From positions 1-64,000 of the IMG/VR virus record IMGVR_UViG_3300025936_000016: a stretch of DNA of 64,000 nt; one strand, 5' to 3'. Within the stretch, counting starts at the first letter, position 1; every line of letters starts with the position of its first letter. Made by a program: the position numbers and the translations under genes. Below are positions 1 through 47,858 of the stretch, in pieces. The notes below the pieces were generated by a model, which saw only the letters and a program-made list of their open reading frames with translations, was not told where the DNA came from and searched no databases. The DNA comes from a virus (taxonomy: Duplodnaviria > Caudoviricetes).

Positions 1-70
1 ACTGCCCGGGAACCGTTCCCTGGCATGGTGCCGGCACCGGGAGTCGAACCCGGCACCGGTCACTGGTGCC

Positions 71-445
71 TTACCGCCTGCCCCAGGGCCACCAACGGCG
101 CCGGGTGGGCGCCGTGGCCTGGACCGTGGCGGGTCGTGCGTGGGTCATGGTGACGGACCTCGGGCGCATCATCGCCGATAGCTCCGCGTCATCGCCGATG
201 GGGCCGGCCTCGGACGCCCATCGGGCGTATGCCTCATGGGCGCTGGTGGTGGCCTCGAATTCGTCCTCACCGTAGGTGAACGAGGTCCAGGGCGTAGGCC
301 AGAGCGTGATGCCCATGGGGCCCTGGACCCGCCGCGCGCCCATGGGCGTGATGGGCTGATGACCCGCCATCACAGCAGCGATCACTAGCGCTCCCTCAAC
401 GACCATGCCCACCACAGTCCATTCCTTGACTGTCGACTGACCCAT
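71..445 (-). CDS. hypothetical protein (cassette gene)
   Basis: 124-aa ORF with RBS AGGAAAGGGG, bounded by minihelix repeats. Confidence 0.8.
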   Translation of the reverse strand: MGQSTVKEWTVVGMVVEGALVIAAVMAGHQPITPMGARRVQGPMGITLWPTPWTSFTYGEDEFEATTSAHEAYARWASEAGPIGDDAELSAMMRPRSVTMTHARPATVQATAPTRRRWWPWGRR

Positions 446-543
446 GAGTCAGTCCCCCTTTCCTAGCTTGGTGTGTGGCCCCAGGACCGTCCTGGGGCCC
501 CGTGCCGGCACCGGGAGTCGAACCCGGCGCCGGTCACTTGGTG

Positions 544-780
544 CTAGCTGACAGGGAAGAGTGGCAACGGCACGGGCCCCATGTCCTCGGGACCGTAGCC
601 GTACACTTCCCCCTCTCCGTCTGCCTTGCGGTCGATCACTCCCCAGAGTCGACCCACACCAACCGCCGCCCAAGTGGGCAGGATCAGCATGGGCGCAACG
701 CCTGGATACTGGCGGATGCGACCGAGGCCCGGACTGTCCACGCCGGACCCCTCTGAGTAGTCCCGGACCCGTTCGTACAT
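544..780 (-). CDS. hypothetical protein (cassette gene)
   Basis: MYERVRDY...; start moved to ATG 780 after RBS GAGAGAGGA. Confidence 0.75.
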   Translation of the reverse strand: MYERVRDYSEGSGVDSPGLGRIRQYPGVAPMLILPTWAAVGVGRLWGVIDRKADGEGEVYGYGPEDMGPVPLPLFPVS

Positions 781-880
781 GGGCCGTCCTCTCTCTTGGT
801 GCTGCCCAGGACCGTCCTGGACATCGGGGTAGCGCCGGGAGTCGAACCCGGCACCACCGTTGTGCATTGTGCGGCTTGGA

Positions 881-1189
881 TCAGGCCACGGTCTCGACGT
901 CGTTTTCGACGTTGTACCGGTGCTGGTCCAGGGCCTCGGCCAACATGGCCTCTTCCTGGGCCGTGAGGCCCAGGTCCAGGACGCGCCGGACGAGGTCCGC
1001 CTGCTCCGCCGGGACCGTCAGGGTAACCTCCCGGACCTCGGTCACGTTCGTGACCCGCAGGCCCCGGTACTCGATCGGCGCGACCTGTGCCACGTACTGG
1101 TCGATGACCTCGGCCACGTTGGCGGGGCCGTTGATCGTGCCGAACCCGTCCGCGTCCACGATGCCGCTGATGATGACGTTGTAACGCAT
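881..1189 (-). CDS. hypothetical protein (cassette gene)
   Basis: 102 aa, RBS AAGGGAG, between repeats. Confidence 0.8.
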   Translation of the reverse strand: MRYNVIISGIVDADGFGTINGPANVAEVIDQYVAQVAPIEYRGLRVTNVTEVREVTLTVPAEQADLVRRVLDLGLTAQEEAMLAEALDQHRYNVENDVETVA

Positions 1190-1401
1190 GGTGCGCTCCC
1201 TTACTCACTGCTGCCCGGGACCTTGTGTCCCTGGGCATGGTGCCGGCACCGGGAGTCGAACCCGGCGCCGGTCACTTGGTACTGCCTCCCTTCCGTTGTC
1301 CGTGGGGCCCCAGGACCGTCCCGGGGCCTATGTGTCTGTGCACTGTGGAGAGTCATGGCACCGGCACCGGGAGTCGAACCCGGCACCGGCGCACCGGTCG
1401 G

Positions 1402-1791
1402 CTAGACGCTCTGCCAACCGGTGGGCCAACCGCTGTCACCGTTGCCCGGCGCCTGATCGCAGTCGTAACCCTTGTGATACGGGTTCGCCTGGACCGTGCA
1501 GACGTCGGGCAGCGTGATGCGGCCGGAGAGACTGTCATCGGTTACCATGAGTGCCAGCGGGATGACGCTCCCGTCCGGCTTGGCCATGAAGATCAGCCCG
1601 ACCGGATCGGTACCATCCAACATGGCCCGCATGAGTCCGATGTCGTCTCCGTTGCCGAACGACGGGCCCAGGACGTTGGTCACCAGGATGTCCGACACGT
1701 CGCTCACCAGAGCGTAGAAGTGCTCGCGCTCACGGTTGCTCACGTCGGGCATGTCGTCGATCGAGCGGGTGTTACTGGGGTCGAAAGGCAT
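1402..1791 (-). CDS. hypothetical protein (cassette gene)
   Basis: 129 aa, RBS GAGAGGG, between repeats. Confidence 0.8.
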   Translation of the reverse strand: MPFDPSNTRSIDDMPDVSNREREHFYALVSDVSDILVTNVLGPSFGNGDDIGLMRAMLDGTDPVGLIFMAKPDGSVIPLALMVTDDSLSGRITLPDVCTVQANPYHKGYDCDQAPGNGDSGWPTGWQSV

Positions 1792-1834
1792 GGGAAACCC
1801 TCTCTACCTGCTGCCCGGGAACCGTTCCCTGGCA

Positions 1835-2084
1835 TGGGGGTCCTAGCCGGAGTCGAACCGACTGCATCTCCCTGGGCCTACGTTGTACGCGGCCGTAGCG
1901 GCTAGCACACCATAGGGAGATCGGGCACCGTGAGCCCTTGGACCATGAAGAGTGCGCGCCCAGTTTCGGTCGGTCGCTGCCATGTCACACACGCGGATTC
2001 AGCCGCTACCCTATCCGGATTCGGCGGAGGCCCTAGCCCGCTTCCCCATCGGCGCGTGGCATTCCCTACCCGACGTTAGGCCCC
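1835..2084 (-). ncRNA. candidate ~250-nt RNA with tRNA-like ends
   Basis: 3' end GTCGG-TTCGACT-CCGGC-TAGGACC-C-CCA can pair with 5' GGGGCCTA; no convincing ORF; promoter directly upstream. Confidence 0.5.
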
Positions 2085-2132
2085 GGGCACTCCGGACGAG
2101 GTTTAGCGGCGCTCCCGGGCCGTTCTGCTATC

Positions 2133-2160
2133 AGCATACCATACGGATACTGATAGTCAA
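2133..2160 (-). promoter_or_regulatory. sigma70-type promoter
   Basis: TTGACT-16 bp-TATGCT with TG extended -10; overlaps inverted repeat CTATCAG/CTGATAG. Confidence 0.7.
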
Positions 2161-2201
2161 GTGCCGGCACCGGGAGTCGAACCCGGCGCCGGTCACTGGT
2201 G

Positions 2202-2402
2202 CTAGTAGGTGACCATCGACGTGTACCGTGAGCATGCCCGCCTGTCGTGCGCCGGATGCCTCAATGGCAACGCCGTAGGAATCGTGCGCCCACACTGCGC
2301 GCACACGTACTCGCGTCGCATCAGCTCGTTGGTGACAGCTTCCAACATGGCCCGTAGCTCAGGAATGCTGGCCTCAGTACGCACCCACCTATCAATCTCC
2401 AC
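2202..2402 (-). CDS. hypothetical protein with CxxC motif (cassette gene)
   Basis: GTG start after GAAAGGG; CAQC motif. Confidence 0.7.
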   Translation of the reverse strand: MEIDRWVRTEASIPELRAMLEAVTNELMRREYVCAQCGRTIPTALPLRHPAHDRRACSRYTSMVTY

Positions 2403-2489
2403 TGTGGACCCTTTCGTGCCTACTGACCAGGGACCGTCCCTGGCCATGGTGCCGGCACCGGGAGTCGAACCCGGCGCCGGTCACTGGTG

Positions 2490-2903
2490 CTAGTTGGTGG
2501 CCTCGGCCATGGGCACGCGGTCCAGGTCCCGGGCCTCTTCCTGGGCCCTGTCCAGCGCGACCCGCCGGACCCGGGCCATGAAGGTAGCTGGGGCCTCGCG
2601 CCGGGTGTTGACCCGCATACCCCGGTGCCGGCGCACGTCCGCCATGGTGAATGGACGGTCCGTGGCCTCACCGGTCGTCGGGTCAACCGCTTGCATGAAT
2701 GACCCGCCGTATAGGCCCTGCAGGATGACAAGACGGGCGTATACCTCTTGCTCACTGGCCATCGTGATCTCATCCATGCCCACATGTAGGCAGATGATGA
2801 TGCCTAGCCACTTGGTCACTGGGGCCAAGTCCAGACCATCGGGACCGTCAGCCCACAACTCGTCACTGTTCTCGCATCGACTCACGTCAACGTTCACAGT
2901 CAT
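2490..2903 (-). CDS. hypothetical protein (cassette gene)
   Basis: MTVNVDVSRC..., RBS GGAAGGA. Confidence 0.8.
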   Translation of the reverse strand: MTVNVDVSRCENSDELWADGPDGLDLAPVTKWLGIIICLHVGMDEITMASEQEVYARLVILQGLYGGSFMQAVDPTTGEATDRPFTMADVRRHRGMRVNTRREAPATFMARVRRVALDRAQEEARDLDRVPMAEATN

Positions 2904-2997
2904 GAGTGCTGTTCCTTCCGTGCCTACTGACCAGGGACCGTCCCTGGTCATGGTGCCGGCACCGGGAGTCGAACCCGGCGCCGGTCACTTGGTGCCG

Positions 2998-3321
2998 TTA
3001 CAGGTGGTCGCTTGCTCGATCACATTGCCCGTGACTGTCCAGGGGACGGTCACAGGTGCCTGTGCCGGTACCGCGCCGGGCGTTCGCGTCGCAACGACTC
3101 GCAACCGTGCGGACCCTGGTCACTAGCAGGTTGAACACTCCGGCCGGGTAGCTCCGACTGGTCCTGTCCTCGGGCCACATGACAGCCACCCGGCCGTCAT
3201 GACCCTCCATGTTGATCCGTTCCAACCGGACCAGCCGCGCGCCCGTACCCCGGGAGTCCGTCACCGTGTCATTGATGCTGACCTGGGCGCCAGTCCCCTT
3301 GTCGTGCGCCTGCATTTGCAT
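2998..3321 (-). CDS. hypothetical protein (cassette gene)
   Basis: 107 aa, RBS GGAAGGA. Confidence 0.8.
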   Translation of the reverse strand: MQMQAHDKGTGAQVSINDTVTDSRGTGARLVRLERINMEGHDGRVAVMWPEDRTSRSYPAGVFNLLVTRVRTVASRCDANARRGTGTGTCDRPLDSHGQCDRASDHL

Positions 3322-3418
3322 GGGTGGATCCTTCCGTGCCTACTGACCAGGGACCGTCCCTGGTCATGGTGCCGGCACCGGGAGTCGAACCCGGCGCCGG
3401 TCACTGGTGCTGCTGGTG

Positions 3419-3670
3419 CTACATGCCGTCTCGCAGGACAACCGCCAGCGCGTACATGAGCTGCGCCGCGTTGTCCCGATCCAACGGGATCCACCCGGTA
3501 CGCGACTCAACAACTTCAGCCGAGTCCTCAAAGTGGTCGGTACTACTCACAATGAGATCGACGAAGTTGTCGCCACTGTCACGCATGACCAGCCGTAGCC
3601 GGTGGCTACTGTCGGCCGTCACGGTGCCCTGCGCCACGGTCATGTCATCAATCAGGATGCGCTCCGCCAT
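3419..3670 (-). CDS. hypothetical protein (cassette gene)
   Basis: MAERILIDD..., RBS GAAAGGTG. Confidence 0.75.
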   Translation of the reverse strand: MAERILIDDMTVAQGTVTADSSHRLRLVMRDSGDNFVDLIVSSTDHFEDSAEVVESRTGWIPLDRDNAAQLMYALAVVLRDGM

Positions 3671-3760
3671 GATGTCACACCTTTCAATGCCTGCTGCCTT
3701 GACCATCAAGGCATGGTGCCGGCACCGGGAGTCGAACCCGGCGCCGGTCACTTGGTGCTG

Positions 3761-3988
3761 TTACCGCCGTGTGCTGTCGATCCTGGTCCCGCGTGGACGG
3801 CTGATGCGGTCCGCGTAGGCGTAGAACCCGTTCCGGTCCGTGTCCAGGGCCCGGTGCCCGTGGCGCCGCGTCCAGAAGTCCGCGTGTGCCTGAGCCTCGG
3901 CCATGGATCCGCAGGCCGTGACGACCAGGATGCGCTCTGGCGCCGCGTTCTCGACGTGAGCGAGAACGACGCCATACACGTTGTCCAT
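3761..3988 (-). CDS. hypothetical protein (cassette gene)
   Basis: 75 aa, RBS GAAAGGA. Confidence 0.75.
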   Translation of the reverse strand: MDNVYGVVLAHVENAAPERILVVTACGSMAEAQAHADFWTRRHGHRALDTDRNGFYAYADRISRPRGTRIDSTRR

Positions 3989-4079
3989 GATGGATCCTTT
4001 CTAGCTCGGCCAGGACCGTCCTGGCCTCGCGTGCCGGCACCGGGAGTCGAACCCGGCGCCGGTCACTGGTGCCTTGGTG

Positions 4080-4280
4080 CTACACGTCCAGATCGTTGCG
4101 CAGGGCTGCGAAACAGTCGACGTGCCATGTACCGTCCCACGCGCTCATGCCGTCGTCGCAACACAGCACGTCGTGCCCGCACCCGTCGCACTCAGCGATG
4201 GGCTGACACATGGGCCCCGGGACGTGGACGGTCTGGGCGTTGTCGCGCTCGATGTCCGCGTCAAGGATCAGGGTGAACAT
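4080..4280 (-). CDS. hypothetical Cys-rich protein (first cassette gene)
   Basis: 66 aa, RBS GAAAGGGG, CDGC...HVDC. Confidence 0.75.
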   Translation of the reverse strand: MFTLILDADIERDNAQTVHVPGPMCQPIAECDGCGHDVLCCDDGMSAWDGTWHVDCFAALRNDLDV

Positions 4281-4333
4281 GGGGTGACCCCTTTCGGTCG
4301 TGGCGGGGAACCGTCCCCGCCTTGCCTACCTCC

Positions 4334-4361
4334 AGTATATCACACGTATCAGCATACGCAA
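4334..4361 (-). promoter_or_regulatory. sigma70-type promoter for the cassette array
   Basis: TTGCGT-16 bp-TATACT with TG extended -10. Confidence 0.7.
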
Positions 4362-4412
4362 GCTGCCCCAGGGCGTCCCCAGGGCCCTGGTTTCTGGGGT
4401 ACCATGGGGGGT

Positions 4413-4607
4413 ATGGCCATGACACCCACACAGCAAGCCGAGTACCGGCGCCTACACCGGGCCATGAATGAGGGTCCAGGCCGGCGCATGGTGGCTGACA
4501 CCCTGGCAGGTAGGGGCCTGACCAGGGCAGACATTGATCAGGCAGACCGGTATCAACGCCTGATGCGGGCACTCACGACTACCGGACGGCGCGCGCCAAG
4601 GCCCTGA
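4413..4607 (+). CDS. hypothetical protein
   Basis: MAMTPTQQAEYRRL..., 64 aa. Confidence 0.55.
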   Translation: MAMTPTQQAEYRRLHRAMNEGPGRRMVADTLAGRGLTRADIDQADRYQRLMRALTTTGRRAPRP

Positions 4608-5310
4608 GAGAACAGGCCCCGGACCTCTGGTCCAGGCCCGTCGTGCAGGCCCTAGGCAAACGCCTAGGGTGGCCTGGGTACTAGGTCCCTGACCTGGGCC
4701 CCAGGCCCGGGACACACGGCATGGCGCAAGGGCCCCGGGCCCTGGGCTACGGTCCAGGCCCGGGGCCTTTGTCGTTGGGCCCAGTGTCCACGGTGGACGG
4801 TCCACGGTGGACAGTCATGGTCACGGTGGCTAGGACACGGTACGGTCACGGGCCTAGACGAGGGTGCCCAGGGCCGGTACCCTAGGACCTAGGCCCAGGC
4901 ACAGGGCCCCAGGGGTAGCTCAGGGGACCAGGGGCCTACCTGAGACCAGGGCCCAGGCCCAGGCCCCAGGGCCCACAAGTCAGACATGCCCCCTATGTCC
5001 GAGTCCCTCGCGCCCACCCCCCAGGCCCAGGCCGGAGGGCCCAGGAGCTAGCCCCTCGGACCAAAGGGACAAGCCCCGCAGGTAGGACCTTTTTCCTAAT
5101 CCGGGCGCAAAGGACCTACGCAAAGAGCCTGTACCCAGGCCCTTGATCCATTCCCTAAGACTTTGCTCCTCTTCAATGCCTTGGTTCTGACTCCGGCCGC
5201 TCGGAGAGCCCGGATACCACACCAAGATCCTATGATCTTGTACCTGGGACGATACAAATCACACATGCATGTTGCCTAGGCACATACCTATATGTGCGCA
5301 GGCACGTATC

Positions 5311-5763
5311 ATGACCAAGGTGGAAGAGCTGGAACCCACCCCCCGGGAACTGACCGACGACGACATCGCCACCGCCAAACCCCGGGTCCGTTGGCTGCAC
5401 CTGCAGCGCTACGAACAGCTCTGGGACCGCGTCCAAGAACGGGTCCAACAGGACCAGGACCACGACAACGGCCGTCCCATCGACCCCAGGTTCCTGGAAA
5501 TCGGCATCCGCATCCTGAAGGAAGAAGCCGCCCTCTACCAGATGGGCCGCGTCCTACCCCCCGTCGAGGAAGACGACGACCCCAGCATCACCGGCGTGGA
5601 CCGACAGGCGCTTGTCCTGGCCCAGCTGGAAGACCTGGAAGCTAAGCGTCAGGCCCAGGCGGAGGATCTTCGAAGAAGGACCGAAGGTCCGGCCCCGGTC
5701 CCAACGCCAGACCAAGAGTCATCGAATCAGGATCCTGGCCTGGACCCGAGCCCGCAGCCGTAG
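5311..5763 (+). CDS. hypothetical protein, possibly terminase small subunit-like
   Basis: Strong C/G3 codon bias; the helical segment RFLEIGIRILKEEAALYQM loosely resembles actinophage small-terminase-like proteins. Confidence 0.5.
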   Translation: MTKVEELEPTPRELTDDDIATAKPRVRWLHLQRYEQLWDRVQERVQQDQDHDNGRPIDPRFLEIGIRILKEEAALYQMGRVLPPVEEDDDPSITGVDRQALVLAQLEDLEAKRQAQAEDLRRRTEGPAPVPTPDQESSNQDPGLDPSPQP

Positions 5764-6217
5764 GTCCAGGAGCTGAGCCCAGGACCCGGGTGCAGGTGGG
5801 TAGGCACTGGGGGGACAGGCCACAGGAGCAGGGACCGAGCAGCTCGTCGTCATCCTCCACGATCCGGGTCAACGGAGCTGGTGCATTGGCGTGGACGAAC
5901 GGTGCCACGCCTCGTCCCCGGGCACTACGCACCACAGGCTCCAGTTCCACCCTCGGCGGCGTGAGCCCTTGGCCCCGGCCCAGGAAGTCGACTGTGATCT
6001 CCGGACCTTGGGTCCAGGTGGCCTGGACCAGGAGGACGTGAACGTCCACCTTCCTGGTGCTGACGCTGAGTCCCCGTAGATCAGCCTGGCGGTAGGTCGC
6101 GGCCCGGAAGCTGGACAGTGACCCAAAGGTGGGGATGTCAGCTAGATCCACTTCGTAGGGCCGACCGTCGAGGACCTTGTTCCACCACTCGGGCGGTAGC
6201 TTCTCGCGCCTCGGCAC
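5642..6217 (-). CDS. hypothetical protein
   Basis: 191 aa, RBS GGGAGG; overlaps the convergent gene by ~120 bp. Confidence 0.55.
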   Translation of the reverse strand: MPRREKLPPEWWNKVLDGRPYEVDLADIPTFGSLSSFRAATYRQADLRGLSVSTRKVDVHVLLVQATWTQGPEITVDFLGRGQGLTPPRVELEPVVRSARGRGVAPFVHANAPAPLTRIVEDDDELLGPCSCGLSPQCLPTCTRVLGSAPGPTAAGSGPGQDPDSMTLGLALGPGPDLRSFFEDPPPGPDA

Positions 6218-6990
6218 CCTCCCATCGTAACAGAGACAACGACAATGAACAAGGTCTTGTCACTGTTGTTGTTGTCGTCATTGTAGCTACTACGAGGCCC
6301 TCGGCCCTGGTCCAATTTGCCCACCTTTGGGCAAGGATCAACGACACCAACTCCTGTTGATCCATTCAAGATCATTTGCGTCCATCCTAGTCTCTATTAC
6401 CTGTTCCAGGTAATATTCTTTTTTTTCTATATTAGGAAGAACAATAAGAATGACTGAGTAAAGGGTATAGGGCTAGGTCCAAGGAAACGAACAAGTAATA
6501 GAAACTACGACGGGCAAAAGGGACATAGAGACCAGGGGATTGTAGTTGTCACTACTTATACGTTTCACAGGGCCAAGGGGGTCACCAAGGAAAAGGGTCA
6601 TTCTTCCTCCAGTCACTCCTCAAAGAGGCCGTGACCTGGGAAAACGTCAGGACCGGCGCCAGGAGTTCAACCCACAGTAATCAGCTATGTACTGTCGGTG
6701 GTCAAAAGAGCCTGAACCAACACCCTTGAGCCAGCGCAGCCGCGCACTCTGGTCCAGGCCAGAGAGGCCGGGCTCCAGTCGGGGCAGGGACCAGCAGCAG
6801 CCGGCGGTGGGGCCTGGGACCTGGGTGCTGGGTGGTTGGCCCGGCAGCGTGGCCCTGGGGGCTTGGAACTGGGTGCTGGGTGGTTGGTCGCGGGAGCTTG
6901 GGGCTGGGTCGTGGACCTTGGTTCCGTGGGCTTGGGGCTTGACCACAGGTCGGTCACCCAAGGGTCCAGACCTAGCCTTCGGGTAGGGTC

Positions 6991-7020
6991 TTGACCCGTA
7001 CGTGGGGGTGACGCTAGGGT
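6991..7020 (+). promoter_or_regulatory. promoter containing CCCGKACGTRGGGG motif
   Basis: TTGACC-18 bp-TAGGGT. Confidence 0.65.
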
Positions 7021-7027
7021 ATGGGGC

Positions 7028-7357
7028 GTGAAACGGGAACTGGAGTTGGAGCCGGGTGTAGTCACCCCTGGCGAGGTCCGTGTCAGTCACGTTGACCTGG
7101 TTCTCGACACCCCGGATGTTCGAGTGTGGCACATCGACCTGGACAGCAAGTACGCCGAAGTCCTGGCCTACAGTCGGGAAGAGGTCCTCCTGTACGCCAC
7201 CGATGAGACTCTCCGCACGGACGTGGGCCAGCTGGGAACGCCTACCAGCGTCAAGGTCAACGTTCCTGAAGATGATGACGACTACGCCTGGATCATGATG
7301 GTCGACTGTGGTCGTTACAGCTGTCGATTCGTTGCCTACCGGATGAGCAGGCGGTAA
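7028..7357 (+). CDS. hypothetical protein
   Basis: 109-aa ORF, phage-like codon usage. Confidence 0.7.
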   Translation: MKRELELEPGVVTPGEVRVSHVDLVLDTPDVRVWHIDLDSKYAEVLAYSREEVLLYATDETLRTDVGQLGTPTSVKVNVPEDDDDYAWIMMVDCGRYSCRFVAYRMSRR

Positions 7358-7362
7358 CAGGC

Positions 7363-7875
7363 ATGAGCTACCACGTTGGGTTCACCGGTACACGCGCCGG
7401 CATGACGTCCGACCAATGGCACATGCTACGGAAGCGCCTAGCGGCCATCAAGGCAGAGCATGGGGACGTGGTATTCCACTATGGTCAGGCCGTAGGGGCA
7501 GACGAGGAAGCAGCTCTCCTTGCCCATGAAATGGGCTTCTGGGTGGTGTCGCATCCGTCGAACCTGCCGAACCAAACATCAGTACATACGGATCTGATCT
7601 CTGAGGCCCGTGCACCAAAGGCCCCGTTGGTAAGGAACCACGACATCGTGGACGAGAGCAGCCTCATGTTCGCGACACCACGCACGCTGAACGAAGAGCT
7701 TCGGTCCGGCACATGGGCGACGATCAGGTATGCCAACAGAACCGGTGTGACGGTCGAGCAGATTCTGCCCGTAGGCGATCGGCCACAGCTCTATGGCCCG
7801 ATCCCCTCTGTCGACATAATCGGCGAGGCGGCCGACAAGCTGGACCTCCTCCTTGAGGGTGGCGAACATGCGTAG
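7363..7875 (+). CDS. SLOG-fold (DprA/YspA-like) nucleotide-binding protein
   Basis: Motifs VGFTGTR, HYGQAVGAD, RNHDIVD, SGTWATIRYA. Confidence 0.8.
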   Translation: MSYHVGFTGTRAGMTSDQWHMLRKRLAAIKAEHGDVVFHYGQAVGADEEAALLAHEMGFWVVSHPSNLPNQTSVHTDLISEARAPKAPLVRNHDIVDESSLMFATPRTLNEELRSGTWATIRYANRTGVTVEQILPVGDRPQLYGPIPSVDIIGEAADKLDLLLEGGEHA

Positions 7876-8083
7876 GCGACTGTTGCCCGCGTGGGTCCAT
7901 CAGACCTGGGCTTGGGTCGCTGGGTACTTCTGGCTACCGTGCCCTGAGTGTGGAGAGATGTTCGGTGGTCATGAGACTGCCCGCGACGGCGCATCGGTGG
8001 ATGGGCTGCTTGTGTGCCGGCGTTGCGGCCCCGAGGTCACCGCCCGCAACATAGCCGAGATCAACAGGCGGCTAGGTCTATGA
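7868..8083 (+). CDS. small Zn-finger protein
   Basis: CPEC...CRRC. Confidence 0.65.
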   Translation: MRRRLLPAWVHQTWAWVAGYFWLPCPECGEMFGGHETARDGASVDGLLVCRRCGPEVTARNIAEINRRLGL

Positions 8084-8084
8084 C

Positions 8085-45122: not shown

Positions 45123-45264
45123 ATTGTCCTGGCCCCAGGGAGCTGCCCAAGCTGATCTGGCCTATGGCCAGAGGCATGGTCTTCGACCCGGAGGCCAGGA
45201 CTTTATCACATGCTGTCCACTGTGGAATTCTCAAGAGACAGTTCCTCGGACGAACCGGGGACCG

Positions 45265-45336
45265 TGCGAACGAAGGGAATCGAACCCTCTCCAGGCAGCT
45301 TTAGAGGCTGCCGTGCATCCATTGCACGTCGCTCGC
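45265..45336 (-). tRNA. amber suppressor tRNA (anticodon CTA)
   Basis: GCGAGCG acceptor; GCAGC-CTCTAAA-GCTGC; GAGGG-TTCGATT-CCCTT. Confidence 0.8.
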
Positions 45337-45698: not shown

Positions 45699-47294
45699 CT
45701 ACTCCAGCCAAGGCCACTTCGCCTGTCGGCCAGCCTCCACCATGGAGATCATGTTGAAGGTGGCGTCCGTCAGGCCACCCAGCTGGTGCCGGGTGCTGGA
45801 CGTTTCCATCATGGCCGGCGAGTAGCCCACCATGTTGAACGAGTAGATCGGGACGTTGGCTGGAACCTGGTCACTGACGTTGCCCTGCCAGAACCCACGG
45901 CTGGGGCCGAAGGTCTGCTCATCGGTGATGATCACAACCCGGTCGTGGCCCTTGAACGTGGTCGCCAGAGCCTGGGCGGTCTGGGTGCCGCCACCGGACC
46001 GGCCGTAGAGGCTGTCGAAGCGCTCGGTCTCCCGGAGCACGCCGCCACCCTTCTTCACCTCGAACCGGTTCACGTTGGTGTCGTAGGCGTATACGTCCAC
46101 AGCCTCGCCCTTCAGGGCCAGGGCGATGCCGAACAGGGCCCCGGCCGTGGTGGCCTTGACACTGCTCTTGCCGCTCATGACCATGTGCATCGATCCCGAG
46201 ACGTCGATCAGAACCAAGGTGCGGCCCGGAAGCGGCGGGATGTTGCTCAGCGAGTACTGGAGCGCGGTCTCCAGAGGCAGTGCCCAGTACGGGCTCGTAG
46301 CCTCCTTGGACGCCGACAAGAACCGGAACGGCAGCTGCCGCGACTTACGCACAGCCTCCTCGCTTGCCAGCGTCTCCTGGATCAGCTTCATCGTCTTGGC
46401 GTCGACCCCGGCCTCCTGGATGTTGCGGAGGTTCCGGAGCAAGGCCATGTATCCCATGGTCGGAACCACGGCCTGCCAGACGTTGGCCGTGAGCTTGCCC
46501 CACGACGAGACCTGCTCCCAGGTCATGCCGGCACCCTGAAGGGCATCAGGCGCCTGGTCGGATGCCAGGAGCCGAGCCTTCTCAGCATCGGTCAGAGCCT
46601 GGAGCTTGCCCCGGTTCAGGAGCACGGTCAGTTCGGCCGGGATCTCGGTCGGGCGCCGACGACTGTCCAAAATGTACTTGAACAGGATCGACTGCTCGAA
46701 CGTGCCCGGGTCCGGGTGCGTCAGCTCGATGACGTCGGCCATCCGGACGGCGTCACCAGAACGGTCCCACTTGATGTAGTTCCGCTGGGTGTACAACCGG
46801 ACAGCAGCGTCAGCGATACCACGACGGATCGCGGCGGGGGTCTTCTTGCCGTAGGTGTTGAGCCAGTAGCTCAAGGCTTCGGCCGGCTCATCGGCACGGA
46901 CGAGGACACGGTTCATGACCTCACGCGCGTAGCCCGGCAGTCCTGGCTGAATGACCTGACCCTGGAGCACACGGGCAGCCTCCACGGCACCGACGACGGC
47001 AGCCGTACGGATGTTGCCCTTGGTCCGCAGCCACACGAGGAAGTCCACGACCCACTTGGGGTCTTCCTTGGCGACCTGCTGGACCAGTCCGGCGAACCGG
47101 GTGTTCCGCTCCTGGGCCTTCTCGTAGAAGGTGTCCTCGCCGTAGAAGTTGGTCACAGCCAGAAGGAACAGGTCCGTCTTGGCGTCACGCGACCAGGCCG
47201 GTGCGCCCTCGAACGTGACCGCGTCCTGGGCTGTGGTCTGAAGGGGGGTACGAGCACGGGCCGTCCGTGTCGTCTTGGTGTTGAGCTTTGCCAT
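45699..47294 (-). CDS. rsr: Ro60/TROVE-domain RNA-binding protein with C-terminal vWA
   Basis: DTFYE, MGYMALLRNLRN, PFRFLSA, LIDVSGSM, IITDEQ; ATG 47294 after GAGAGGA. Confidence 0.93.
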   Translation of the reverse strand: MAKLNTKTTRTARARTPLQTTAQDAVTFEGAPAWSRDAKTDLFLLAVTNFYGEDTFYEKAQERNTRFAGLVQQVAKEDPKWVVDFLVWLRTKGNIRTAAVVGAVEAARVLQGQVIQPGLPGYAREVMNRVLVRADEPAEALSYWLNTYGKKTPAAIRRGIADAAVRLYTQRNYIKWDRSGDAVRMADVIELTHPDPGTFEQSILFKYILDSRRRPTEIPAELTVLLNRGKLQALTDAEKARLLASDQAPDALQGAGMTWEQVSSWGKLTANVWQAVVPTMGYMALLRNLRNIQEAGVDAKTMKLIQETLASEEAVRKSRQLPFRFLSASKEATSPYWALPLETALQYSLSNIPPLPGRTLVLIDVSGSMHMVMSGKSSVKATTAGALFGIALALKGEAVDVYAYDTNVNRFEVKKGGGVLRETERFDSLYGRSGGGTQTAQALATTFKGHDRVVIITDEQTFGPSRGFWQGNVSDQVPANVPIYSFNMVGYSPAMMETSSTRHQLGGLTDATFNMISMVEAGRQAKWPWLE

Positions 47295-47313
47295 GGTCTT
47301 TCTCCTCTCGGGC

Positions 47314-47353
47314 AAAAAATAAGGGGCCGGTGTCCTGATGGGATCCGGCCCCT
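47314..47353 (-). terminator. rho-independent terminator between the Y RNAs and rsr
   Basis: AGGGGCCGG...CCGGCCCCT-TATTTTTT. Confidence 0.75.
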
Positions 47354-47364
47354 GGGTAGTAATG

Positions 47365-47493
47365 GCTGACAGGCAACAAGGCGTTCCAGGTGTCCGCCGT
47401 TTCAAGGCGGTGTCCGCGCCAGCGGCCATCCCAAGAGTGGGAGGGGCAGGAATTGAACCTGCGAAGTAACCCGGTACTAACGGATCTGTCAGC
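47365..47493 (-). ncRNA. Y RNA 1 (with tRNA-like module)
   Basis: GCTGACAG/CTGTCAGC ends; CAGATCCG...GTTACTTC...TTGTTGCCTG; T arm GCAGG-TTCAATT-CCTGC. Confidence 0.78.
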
Positions 47494-47502
47494 GAAGTAG
47501 GT

Positions 47503-47585
47503 GCTCCCAGGCAACAAGGCGGCGCAAGTGTCACTTTGTTTTCACCAAATTGAAAGAAGTAACTCGCACCTGCGGATCTGGGAAC
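47503..47585 (-). ncRNA. Y RNA 2 (short)
   Basis: Same conserved terminal motifs, no tRNA module. Confidence 0.72.
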
Positions 47586-47594
47586 GAAGCTGAT

Positions 47595-47706
47595 GTCGCC
47601 AGGCAACATGAGCGGCTGTGAGGGTGTCCCACCGTGGGCTGGGCCCAACGGAGGGCTTCCGTGTGAGTTGTATGAAGTAACCCCACGAGCCTTCGGATCT
47701 GGCAAC
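47595..47706 (-). ncRNA. Y RNA 3
   Basis: Same conserved terminal motifs. Confidence 0.72.
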
Positions 47707-47716
47707 CGAAGTTGAT

Positions 47717-47858
47717 GTCGTCAGGCTACAAAGGCGGCTGAAGTGTTTTTAGCGCTCTGCCAATTGAGCTACAAGGCCACAAGTGGCCTCGCTGGGACTC
47801 GAACCCAGAACCTCTCCTATATCAAAGGAAGTAACTCCTGCCAATCGGATCTGACGAC
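47717..47858 (-). ncRNA. yrlA: Y RNA 4, YrlA-like (permuted tRNA domain)
   Basis: T arm CTGGG-TTCGAGT-CCCAG, loop-closed acceptor GAGGCCAC-TT-GTGGCCTT, then D arm TAGCTCAATTGGCAGAGC. Confidence 0.85.

Follow-up and report, generated by a model that had tools for sequence, protein, structure and literature searches.

What do hairpins shaped like half of a tRNA accomplish when they stand, one after another, between the genes of a phage operon? The question is raised by one end of IMG/VR virus record IMGVR_UViG_3300025936_000016, of which the first 64 kb of 104,655 bp, referred to here as the window, was analyzed. On the minus strand of its first 4 kb, small genes (the cassettes of an array) are separated by a hairpin built like the acceptor and T arms of a tRNA, termed the minihelix or hairpin 1, which is followed by a second hairpin, hairpin 2, ahead of the next gene. 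It is considered probable that this two-hairpin module works at the RNA level, in the processing or stability of the message, and the asymmetric placement of G·U pairs, covariation, and strand-specific stability all point to a function on the mRNA. The fuller proposal, that the modules punctuate the mRNA for processing and stability with the participation of host tRNA enzymes, would in our estimation stand an even chance of being correct.

tRNA-half hairpins at the cistron boundaries

The T-arm core of the minihelix, GGTTCGACTCC on the minus strand, is found 12 times within the 4 kb between positions 26 and 4066, compared with approximately 0.05 matches expected by chance, and elsewhere in the window only in three true tRNA genes. 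Eleven of these copies are free-standing 35-nt hairpins, the number given in a sequence-only reading of this DNA, and the twelfth (1835 to 1869) has no adjacent 5′ arm. The consensus minihelix, A-CCGGCG-CCGGG-UUCGACU-CCCGG-UGCCGG-C-A-CCA, possesses the 7-bp acceptor stem, 5-bp T stem, T loop, discriminator, and CCA of a tRNA, with the T-arm motif GGTTCRANYCC enclosed by the acceptor-like stem and with no functional anticodon arm. The 5′ acceptor strand joins the T stem directly, and the D and anticodon arms are absent, as had also been stated; ARAGORN at default settings returned no tRNA in positions 1 to 4300, and no Rfam tRNA match with an E value of <1 was obtained in the array region. A discriminator followed by CCA (A/G-CCA) terminates 7 of the 11 window minihelices, which bears out the earlier count, and the twelfth element likewise ends in CCA. 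That reading had further described a 12-position stem capped by TTCGACT; the loop is as described, whereas position 1:72 of the consensus copy is an A·C mismatch instead of a pair. RNAfold predicted an 11- to 14-bp stem and a second hairpin in every copy tested. The copy at 824 to 858 has a different acceptor stem, GGUGGUG/CGCUACC, within a clean 7+5 helix, and because this stem differs in sequence yet pairs, it represents covariation within the minihelix family.

Each minihelix is embedded in a set order of parts, namely, a stop codon, 8 to 12 nt, the minihelix, CACCA, hairpin 2, a Shine-Dalgarno sequence, and AUG. The distance from stop codon to helix is mostly 8 to 12 nt (range, 8 to 22 nt), often in the form UAG-CACCA(A)GUG, and the next ribosome-binding site is located 35 to 50 nt downstream of the element, which places the elements at the cistron boundaries of the polycistron. 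These distances and this anatomy agree with the earlier description of copies situated near stop codons and followed by a second hairpin, a ribosome-binding site, and a different small open reading frame (ORF). Hairpin 2 has the form UGNCC...GGGA-CGG-UCCC...GGNCA, with GACGGUC at its apex, and is followed by CAGUAGG, the Shine-Dalgarno sequence, and AUG; in 12 of the 18 modules it abuts CCA with no spacer. CACCA is present on both sides of each cassette. The module, a term coined here and not a published family, is defined as a stop codon, an 11- to 14-bp hairpin 1, a 4- to 5-nt linker, a hairpin 2 with the GACGGUC apex, a Shine-Dalgarno sequence, and AUG, and 18 such modules were counted in this phage. 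The constituents within the window are listed below (G002, a related phage, and L052 and L077, contigs of the same lineage as the window, are introduced further on).

4334 to 4361, minus: promoter P1, sigma-70 type, TTGCGT-N16-TATACT with TGn (by eye; missed by the strict scan)
4302 to 4321, minus: hairpin of the hairpin-2 type in the 5′ untranslated region of ORF 1, not preceded by a hairpin 1
4080 to 4280, minus: cassette ORF 1, 66 aa, orphan; 40%-identical homologue at the same first position in G002
4029 to 4063, minus: minihelix without CCA (ends ACGC)
4008 to 4026, minus: hairpin 2
3761 to 3988, minus: cassette ORF 2, 75 aa, orphan
3714 to 3748, minus: minihelix with ACCA
3695 to 3713, minus: hairpin 2, UGG loop variant
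3419 to 3670, minus: cassette ORF 3, 83 aa, orphan
3367 to 3401, minus: minihelix with ACCA
3344 to 3366, minus: hairpin 2, 10 bp, loop CGG, directly after CCA
2998 to 3321, minus: cassette ORF 4, 107 aa, orphan; 3′ part differs in strain contig L052
2951 to 2985, minus: minihelix with ACCA
2928 to 2950, minus: hairpin 2
2490 to 2903, minus: cassette ORF 5, 137 aa; has a homologue at 29% identity in the array of G002
2447 to 2481, minus: minihelix with ACCA
2424 to 2446, minus: hairpin 2
2202 to 2402, minus: cassette ORF 6, 66 aa, GTG start, orphan
2159 to 2193, minus: minihelix without CCA; the −35 box of P2 takes the place of CCA
2133 to 2160, minus: promoter P2, internal, sigma-70 type, TTGACT-N16-TATGCT (promoter scan)
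1945 to 2132, minus: structured stretch without ORFs, downstream of P2; unmatched in Rfam
1835 to 1944, minus: tRNA-like RNA, ~110 nt, filling the hairpin-1 slot (ARAGORN at lowered threshold)
1812 to 1834, minus: hairpin 2, abutting the CCA that ends the tRNA-like RNA
1402 to 1791, minus: cassette ORF 7, 129 aa, orphan
1356 to 1390, minus: minihelix variant with G1·U72, discriminator G, CCA, and a 14-bp stem
1306 to 1328, minus: hairpin 2, 27 nt after CCA; no ORF before the next minihelix
1238 to 1272, minus: minihelix with ACCA
1212 to 1237, minus: hairpin 2 variant, 5-nt loop
881 to 1189, minus: cassette ORF 8, 102 aa, orphan
824 to 858, minus: minihelix with acceptor GGUGGUG/CGCUACC, ends CCGA
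803 to 823, minus: hairpin 2
544 to 780, minus: cassette ORF 9, 78 aa, orphan
500 to 534, minus: minihelix without CCA (ends ACGG)
477 to 499, minus: hairpin 2
71 to 445, minus: cassette ORF 10, 124 aa, orphan
26 to 60, minus: minihelix with ACCA, U6·G67 variant; array continues past base 1 in L077
3 to 25, minus: hairpin 2 belonging to the following cassette (ORF outside the window)

The contig end at base 1 truncates the array, since L077, which is 100% identical to window positions 1 to 4692 and extends 5 kb beyond base 1, carries the array further, adding six minihelices and eight ORFs (L077:1 to 5068). The full array of window and L077 holds 18 T-loop elements (17 minihelices and the tRNA-like RNA) over 8.6 kb, so that tRNA-top-half hairpins stand between at least 17 small genes belonging to a single operon; NCCA ends 12 of the 18 elements, and the T loop, UUCGACU, is invariant in all of them. 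L077 is one of four contigs of the same phage lineage (L052, L056, L070, and L077) obtained by a pattern scan of metagenomes, whose other single matches proved to be 3′ ends of tmRNAs or tRNAs. In IMG/VR, the exact minihelix pattern matched nothing besides the phage's own record, and all 33 single matches to the pattern T arm-N11-CCAUG-N4-10-ACGGU were ordinary tRNAs. A full-text literature search yielded no description of tRNA-minihelix arrays in phages.

The array is a single operon of small orphan genes and is apparently read by the host RNA polymerase. It contains only two promoters, P1 and P2, and a hairpin-2-type stem-loop lacking hairpin 1 lies ~10 nt past the predicted transcription start of P1. 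The cassette ORFs are regarded as real genes because their GC3 (0.68 to 0.94) exceeds GC1 and GC2 and because between-strain changes comprise 50 synonymous versus 12 nonsynonymous substitutions. Searches of 18 cassette ORFs against Pfam and PHROGs left 16 without a match, the remaining two being a DUF2637 protein and a subthreshold match to AmpE, and a search for related loci with the DUF2637 cassette protein returned nothing. As side observations, both promoters share the 9-mer ATGCTGATA (4355 to 4347 and 2138 to 2130, minus strand), which could be the site of a common regulator, and no fewer than half of the array ORFs end at UAG, often followed three codons later by UGA in the same frame (UAG-CAC-CAG-UGA). 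A tRNA with anticodon CUA at 45264 to 45336 (minus strand), labeled Pyl by ARAGORN, may be an amber suppressor.

The phage itself is read as a novel, uncultured, actinophage-like soil virus. No DNA match, near or distant, was found among 50,697 deposited phage genomes (INPHARED), and the identity of its primase/polymerase to proteins of Arthrobacter phages does not exceed 32%. Its G+C content is ~62%, and ARAGORN detects 35 tRNA genes at 24.9 to 45.5 kb.

Derivation of the minihelix and of a second tRNA-like element

The minihelix is best read as a tRNA-Lys gene from which nucleotides 8 to 48 have been lost, since nucleotides 1 to 7 and 49 to 73 of tRNA-Lys(UUU) agree with it in 30 of 32 positions, the G7·U66 wobble and discriminator A73 among them. 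These matches emerged when 185,579 species genomes were scanned with the T arm and 3′ acceptor strand as the pattern; most of what was retrieved belonged to two Actinomycetota tRNA types, tRNA-Thr(UGU) with U73 and tRNA-Lys(UUU) with A73, the rest being partial copies resembling tRNA-Thr and some further matches. The matching tRNA-Lys genes belong to several Solirubrobacteraceae and to metagenome-assembled genomes of uncultured Actinomycetota. For an uncultured phage, this match supplies a lead to the host (a Solirubrobacteraceae-like actinomycetotan), albeit a weak one, because the search pattern had been designed from the minihelix itself. The minihelix also shares its complete 17-nt T arm, without a single difference, with the tRNA-Arg(UCU) encoded by the phage itself.

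In one module, the slot of hairpin 1 is taken by the tRNA-like RNA at 1835 to 1944, a separately derived second case which is again followed by UG and hairpin 2. It consists of an acceptor stem (GGUCCAA/UAGGACC), a D-like arm, a long central arm, a T arm (GUCGG-UUCGACU-CCGGC), and C-CCA, with an ambiguity as to the 5′ partner of the acceptor, which may be GGUCCAA at 1944 or GGGCCUA ~240 nt upstream. It is situated in an ORF-free stretch behind the internal promoter P2. Rfam returned no match for positions 1830 to 2160, and a tmRNA was rejected for the same stretch, as ARAGORN made no call there with its default settings and, once thresholds were lowered, produced implausible models only.

The module in related phages and selection on the RNA strand

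A terminase is shared by 28 IMG/VR loci at 31 to 100% identity (most at 56 to 81%). G002, a phage of 120 kb whose terminase is 79% identical, carries 17 modules in each of its ~10-kb terminal inverted repeats, with the same order of parts and the same GACGGUC apex of hairpin 2. The two-hairpin module is thus the conserved unit, while the tRNA form of hairpin 1 is lineage-specific, as G002 retains hairpin 2 but has an ordinary hairpin 1. A covariance model of the minihelix applied to 24 related IMG/VR records retrieved no arrays, only tRNA T arms and a single G002 hairpin. Three features set the phage studied here apart: a T loop that never varies, a minihelix identifiable as tRNA-Lys, and a tRNA-like RNA of separate origin that likewise runs through CCA and UG into hairpin 2. 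A search with a 280-aa cassette protein gave many low-complexity matches and three useful contigs (L208, L209, and L213); these distant contigs hold two-hairpin gene boundaries with other hairpin-1 loops and with a hairpin 2 that differs from GACGGUC, and no tRNA-like arrays.

Two hairpins in these relatives deserve separate mention. The hairpin CCGGUACCGGG-GUUGCG-CCCGGUACCGG-UACCA occurs once in each terminal repeat of G002 (L165:5663 to 5695; L166); its stem and ACCA tail resemble the minihelix, it has no T loop, and promoter-like sequence follows it, as at 2159 to 2193 in the window, such that it may be a minihelix homologue. At one gene boundary of L208 (7867 to 7965), CCGGGG-UUCGAGG-CCCCGG, closed by GAGCG/CGCUC, forms a T-arm-like hairpin 1 without CCA.

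Comparison of the two strands indicates that the modules are selected as RNA. In the G002 modules, 30 G·U pairs are found on the sense strand versus 5 on the antisense strand (P = 2e-5), and the sense fold is the more stable in 15 of 16; the corresponding figure for this phage is 17 of 18, for copies that are not independent of one another. The covariation of hairpin 2 beneath a fixed apex is real: in 29 copies from the two phages, the apex G-A-(C/U)GG-U-C is invariant, and the lower six pairs display 66 double-sided changes with 98% pairing, a percentage that is inflated because the set was chosen by requiring a stem. Compensatory substitutions in hairpin 2 are also evident between strains, where divergence amounts to 0.6% in the minihelix, 2.2% in the ORFs (P = 0.004), and 3.4% in the hairpin-2 zone. 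These data argue against the elements being terminators, promoters, or duplex-DNA sites. No acceptable −35/−10 pair was found inside the minihelix by eye or by scan, no U tract follows the hairpins, and no terminator-like site was detected on the minus strand of positions 1 to 5000. An intrinsic terminator was likewise discarded as a candidate, given the lack of a U tract and the fact that hairpin 1 is followed by CACCAUG and then hairpin 2.

Mechanism and competing explanations

We propose that cleavage of the long transcript would fall within the short linker or next to it, leaving hairpin 1 as a 3′ cap that ends the mRNA of the upstream cistron and hairpin 2 as a 5′ cap that heads the downstream mRNA just before its Shine-Dalgarno sequence, so that single-gene messages with defined and protected ends would be released from the polycistron. 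The acceptor/T-arm half of a tRNA is the part recognized by RNase P, the 3′-trimming enzymes, and the CCA-adding enzyme. Because hairpin 1 corresponds to that half, we infer that these ends are probably produced or maintained by the tRNA-maturation enzymes of the host; a free, CCA-ended minihelix of ~36 nt may be released in the process. As a side effect, the near-identical repeats permit homologous recombination to add, delete, or reorder cassettes. Cutting of the polycistron into hairpin-protected monocistronic mRNAs by host tRNA-processing enzymes was among the roles offered in the sequence-only reading, and of the roles offered there its mRNA-processing component has the best support, drawn from the selection on the mRNA strand, the position at cistron boundaries, and the abutment of CCA and hairpin 2; the role given to tRNA enzymes, by comparison, has to be worded conditionally, because a related phage fills the same slot with non-tRNA hairpins.

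Several observations weigh against the proposal, and particularly against its tRNA-enzyme component. Six of the 18 modules lack CCA. In the RNAfold model of the consensus copy, A1 is bulged and the leader GUG is paired with C72-A73-C74, and from what is generally known of its substrates, an A1·C72 mismatch and leader pairing should reduce cleavage by RNase P. Genes for a CCA-adding enzyme, for RNase III, and for an RNase Z-like protein are all absent from the phage, and processing would therefore depend on the host. Hairpin 1 of G002 is a 12- to 13-bp stem with GNRA-type or other loops, in several sequence families, and the use of such ordinary hairpins by relatives implies that tRNA features are not needed for the basic job of the module. 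The linkers of G002 are 4 to 5 nt long (UGCGA, CGCAA, CACAA, and CACUA), of which UGCGA, CACAA, and CACUA are one or two changes from CACCA, which weakens CCA as independent evidence; as the 12-bp length and the CACNA linker are family traits, any inference from tRNA shape alone is weakened in turn. Finally, the near-identity of the minihelices could stem from recent amplification or gene conversion and not from selection.

Much of this is what would be expected if the minihelix were a tRNA relic, a plain stem-loop that is one of many interchangeable hairpin-1 families and that acts as a barrier to 3′ exonucleases or as a transcription pause or partial terminator, with T loop and CCA as unused baggage. 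This explanation, the main rival, which is possible but which we do not favor, accounts for the GNRA-type and other 12- to 13-bp hairpins in the relatives' slot, for the 12-bp stem length that all hairpin-1 families share, for the six copies devoid of CCA, and for an A1·C72 mismatch and leader pairing that RNase P would disfavor. It is less easily reconciled with a T loop that is unchanged in 18 of 18 copies, with a minihelix 3.6-fold more conserved between strains than the ORFs, with a second, independently derived CCA-ended tRNA-like element in the same slot, or with the 12 copies in which CCA replaces the GCGA-type linker usual for the family, and the lack of a U tract speaks against its terminator version. 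That the repeats serve mainly as recombination sites for the shuffling of anti-host cassettes, in the manner of an integron or of the promoter-early stem-loop (PeSL) cassettes of T4-type phages, with any RNA role secondary, appears unlikely. The cassette order does differ between this phage and G002 with orientation kept, identical minihelices enclose an extra cassette in L070, a difference of one cassette separates the two terminal repeats of G002, and CACCA flanks each cassette on both sides; however, no tyrosine recombinase/IntI (PF00589), serine recombinase or resolvase (PF00239), or Y1 transposase (PF01797) was found in the 104.6-kb record, the G·U asymmetry and hairpin-2 covariation signify selection on RNA and not on duplex DNA, and any identical repeat of 45 nt recombines, so that shuffling may be a by-product.

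The features of tRNA might alternatively be the point in themselves, with CCA-ended minihelices acting as decoys or sponges for toxins or enzymes that target tRNA 3′ ends or tRNA-Lys (CapRel/toxSAS or MenT type), a role that the sequence-only reading had also offered. The circumstantial evidence consists of 12 CCA-ended, tRNA-Lys-like top halves in an apparently host-polymerase-driven (early) operon, yet the relatives do without tRNA features, and the nucleases known to attack tRNA-Lys act on its anticodon loop, which the minihelix lacks; this role is accordingly judged very unlikely. Only slightly better prospects are given to a composite in which tRNA enzymes would cut the early polycistron at the 17 minihelices, the ~36-nt CCA RNAs would be the effectors that soak up toxins or enzymes, and the same cuts would also leave hairpin-capped mRNAs. 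Both arms are near-palindromes (CCGGCGCCGG and GGTGCCGGCACC), as would suit elements acting as duplex DNA, whether as operators or other protein-binding sites or as replication or packaging signals. On the opposite strand, however, the conserved G7·U66 and the other G·U pairs become A·C mismatches, the sense strand is the more stable in 17 of 18 modules, and every copy points the same way as the genes and keeps a fixed spacing from the stop codon, such that a duplex-DNA function is the least credible of the explanations considered.

Viewed against known systems, RNA punctuation of phage messages is not without parallel: in T7, RNase III cuts long irregular hairpins at gene boundaries. The acceptor stem of the minihelix, stacked on a T arm and ending in CCA, recalls the tRNA-like domain of tmRNA and mascRNA (Rfam RF01684), the latter being the only Rfam family with weak matches to the copies (E values of 0.085 to 0.3; 20 to 26 bits against a gathering threshold of 42.5). 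These matches are below threshold, the array has no tag reading frame or D-loop analogue, and there is no homology. Integron attC sites and REP/BIME elements are likewise repeated imperfect hairpins placed just behind stop codons, in arrays of co-oriented cassettes or in operons, and REPs stabilize upstream mRNA, but IntI, a RAYT transposase, the R/L box architecture of attC, and the GTAG head are all lacking here. The closest precedent is provided by the t-elements of plant mitochondria, T-arm-containing tRNA-like structures at which RNase P or RNase Z is directed to cut, creating the ends of mRNAs, and to which CCA is added once they are released (Forner et al. 2007, PMC1920247). They resemble the minihelix in being anticodon-less, in their GGTTCRANYCC T-arm motif, and in their location at mRNA boundaries, whereas they are organellar, single-copy, and mostly noncanonical cloverleaves; the phage element is a bare 12-bp minihelix with an encoded CCA, in 17 near-identical copies, always accompanied by a second, conserved hairpin. 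A functional analogue is found in the hammerhead ribozymes that flank prophage genes (Perreault et al. 2011, PMC3088659), where every boundary between genes of a phage polycistron carries an RNA element and single-gene mRNAs result; those are self-cleaving, while the hairpins described here, of 12 bp and 8 to 10 bp, contain no ribozyme motif.

Should host tRNA enzymes indeed cut at these modules, the array would be a case of tRNA-style punctuation in the message of a bacterial virus, a principle known from mitochondria for which the literature searched offered no phage example. The sister phage G002, which has the same modules without the tRNA features, constitutes a natural control. The element is compact and portable (35 nt plus a 23-nt hairpin) and may serve to insulate genes in actinobacterial operons.

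Cassette order, inverted repeats, and a Ro60 locus

The array also shows how such repeats allow an orphan-gene region to be shuffled. For seven of the cassette proteins a homologue is present in the array of G002, and among these the first two (o413 and o1790) and the last keep their relative order in both phages, while the middle cassettes read [o4713, o5571], o6662, o7124 here and o7124, o6662, [o4713, o5571] in G002; the cassettes are co-oriented and promoterless, and their orientation is kept in both phages. Such a comparison of cassette order across relatives had been suggested in the sequence-only reading, and the order is not fixed. Between strains, L070 contains one extra cassette of 374 bp between identical minihelix copies, and L052 has an internal replacement within one ORF. 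Since the order varies and the insertion or deletion is bounded by identical minihelices, the repeats do act as recombination substrates, and the simplest account is homologous recombination between repeats, closer to PeSL cassettes than to an integron. The integron-like shuffling proposed earlier is upheld to the extent of the variable order and the repeat-bounded insertion or deletion, and fails in that integrase, resolvase, and Y1 transposase are absent. PeSL cassettes undergo repeat-mediated homologous shuffling (Arbiol et al. 2010, PMC2839356; PMC4122927) and share with the array their repeated regulatory motifs beside small orphan genes in a hyperplastic region and the repeat-bounded insertions and deletions between close relatives. 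They differ in that each comprises an early promoter and a terminator stem-loop; here, a strong sigma-70 promoter and terminator stem-loop per unit are not found, as the array has two promoter-like sites, most units have neither promoter nor U tract, and the hairpin is tRNA-derived.

The ends of the array, and window positions 4573 to 7041 beside it, show further peculiarities. The right end of the contig (104530 to 104655) is an exact inverted copy of window positions 6916 to 7041, the distal end of the array in L070 abuts window sequence 4573 to 10172, and the last array ORF shares its C terminus with a plus-strand gene at 4571 to 4681. The ~10-kb array thus seems to lie between two inverted repeats of ~2.5 kb in a map totaling ~112 kb, with assembly ambiguity as an alternative, and the array might invert. 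Terminal inverted repeats are present in the relatives G002 and G021. Dense, short, CCCAGG/GGGCCC-rich repeats (families D4, D6, D10, and D12 to D14) occupy 4600 to 5100 and 6700 to 7000, inside the putative inverted repeat. Elsewhere in the window, a Ro60/TROVE-vWA gene (45699 to 47705, minus strand) adjoins the T-arm-like motif GGGTTCGAGTCCC at 47805 (~47780 to 47830), which looks like a phage Ro60 with one or more tRNA-like Y RNAs beside the tRNA island.

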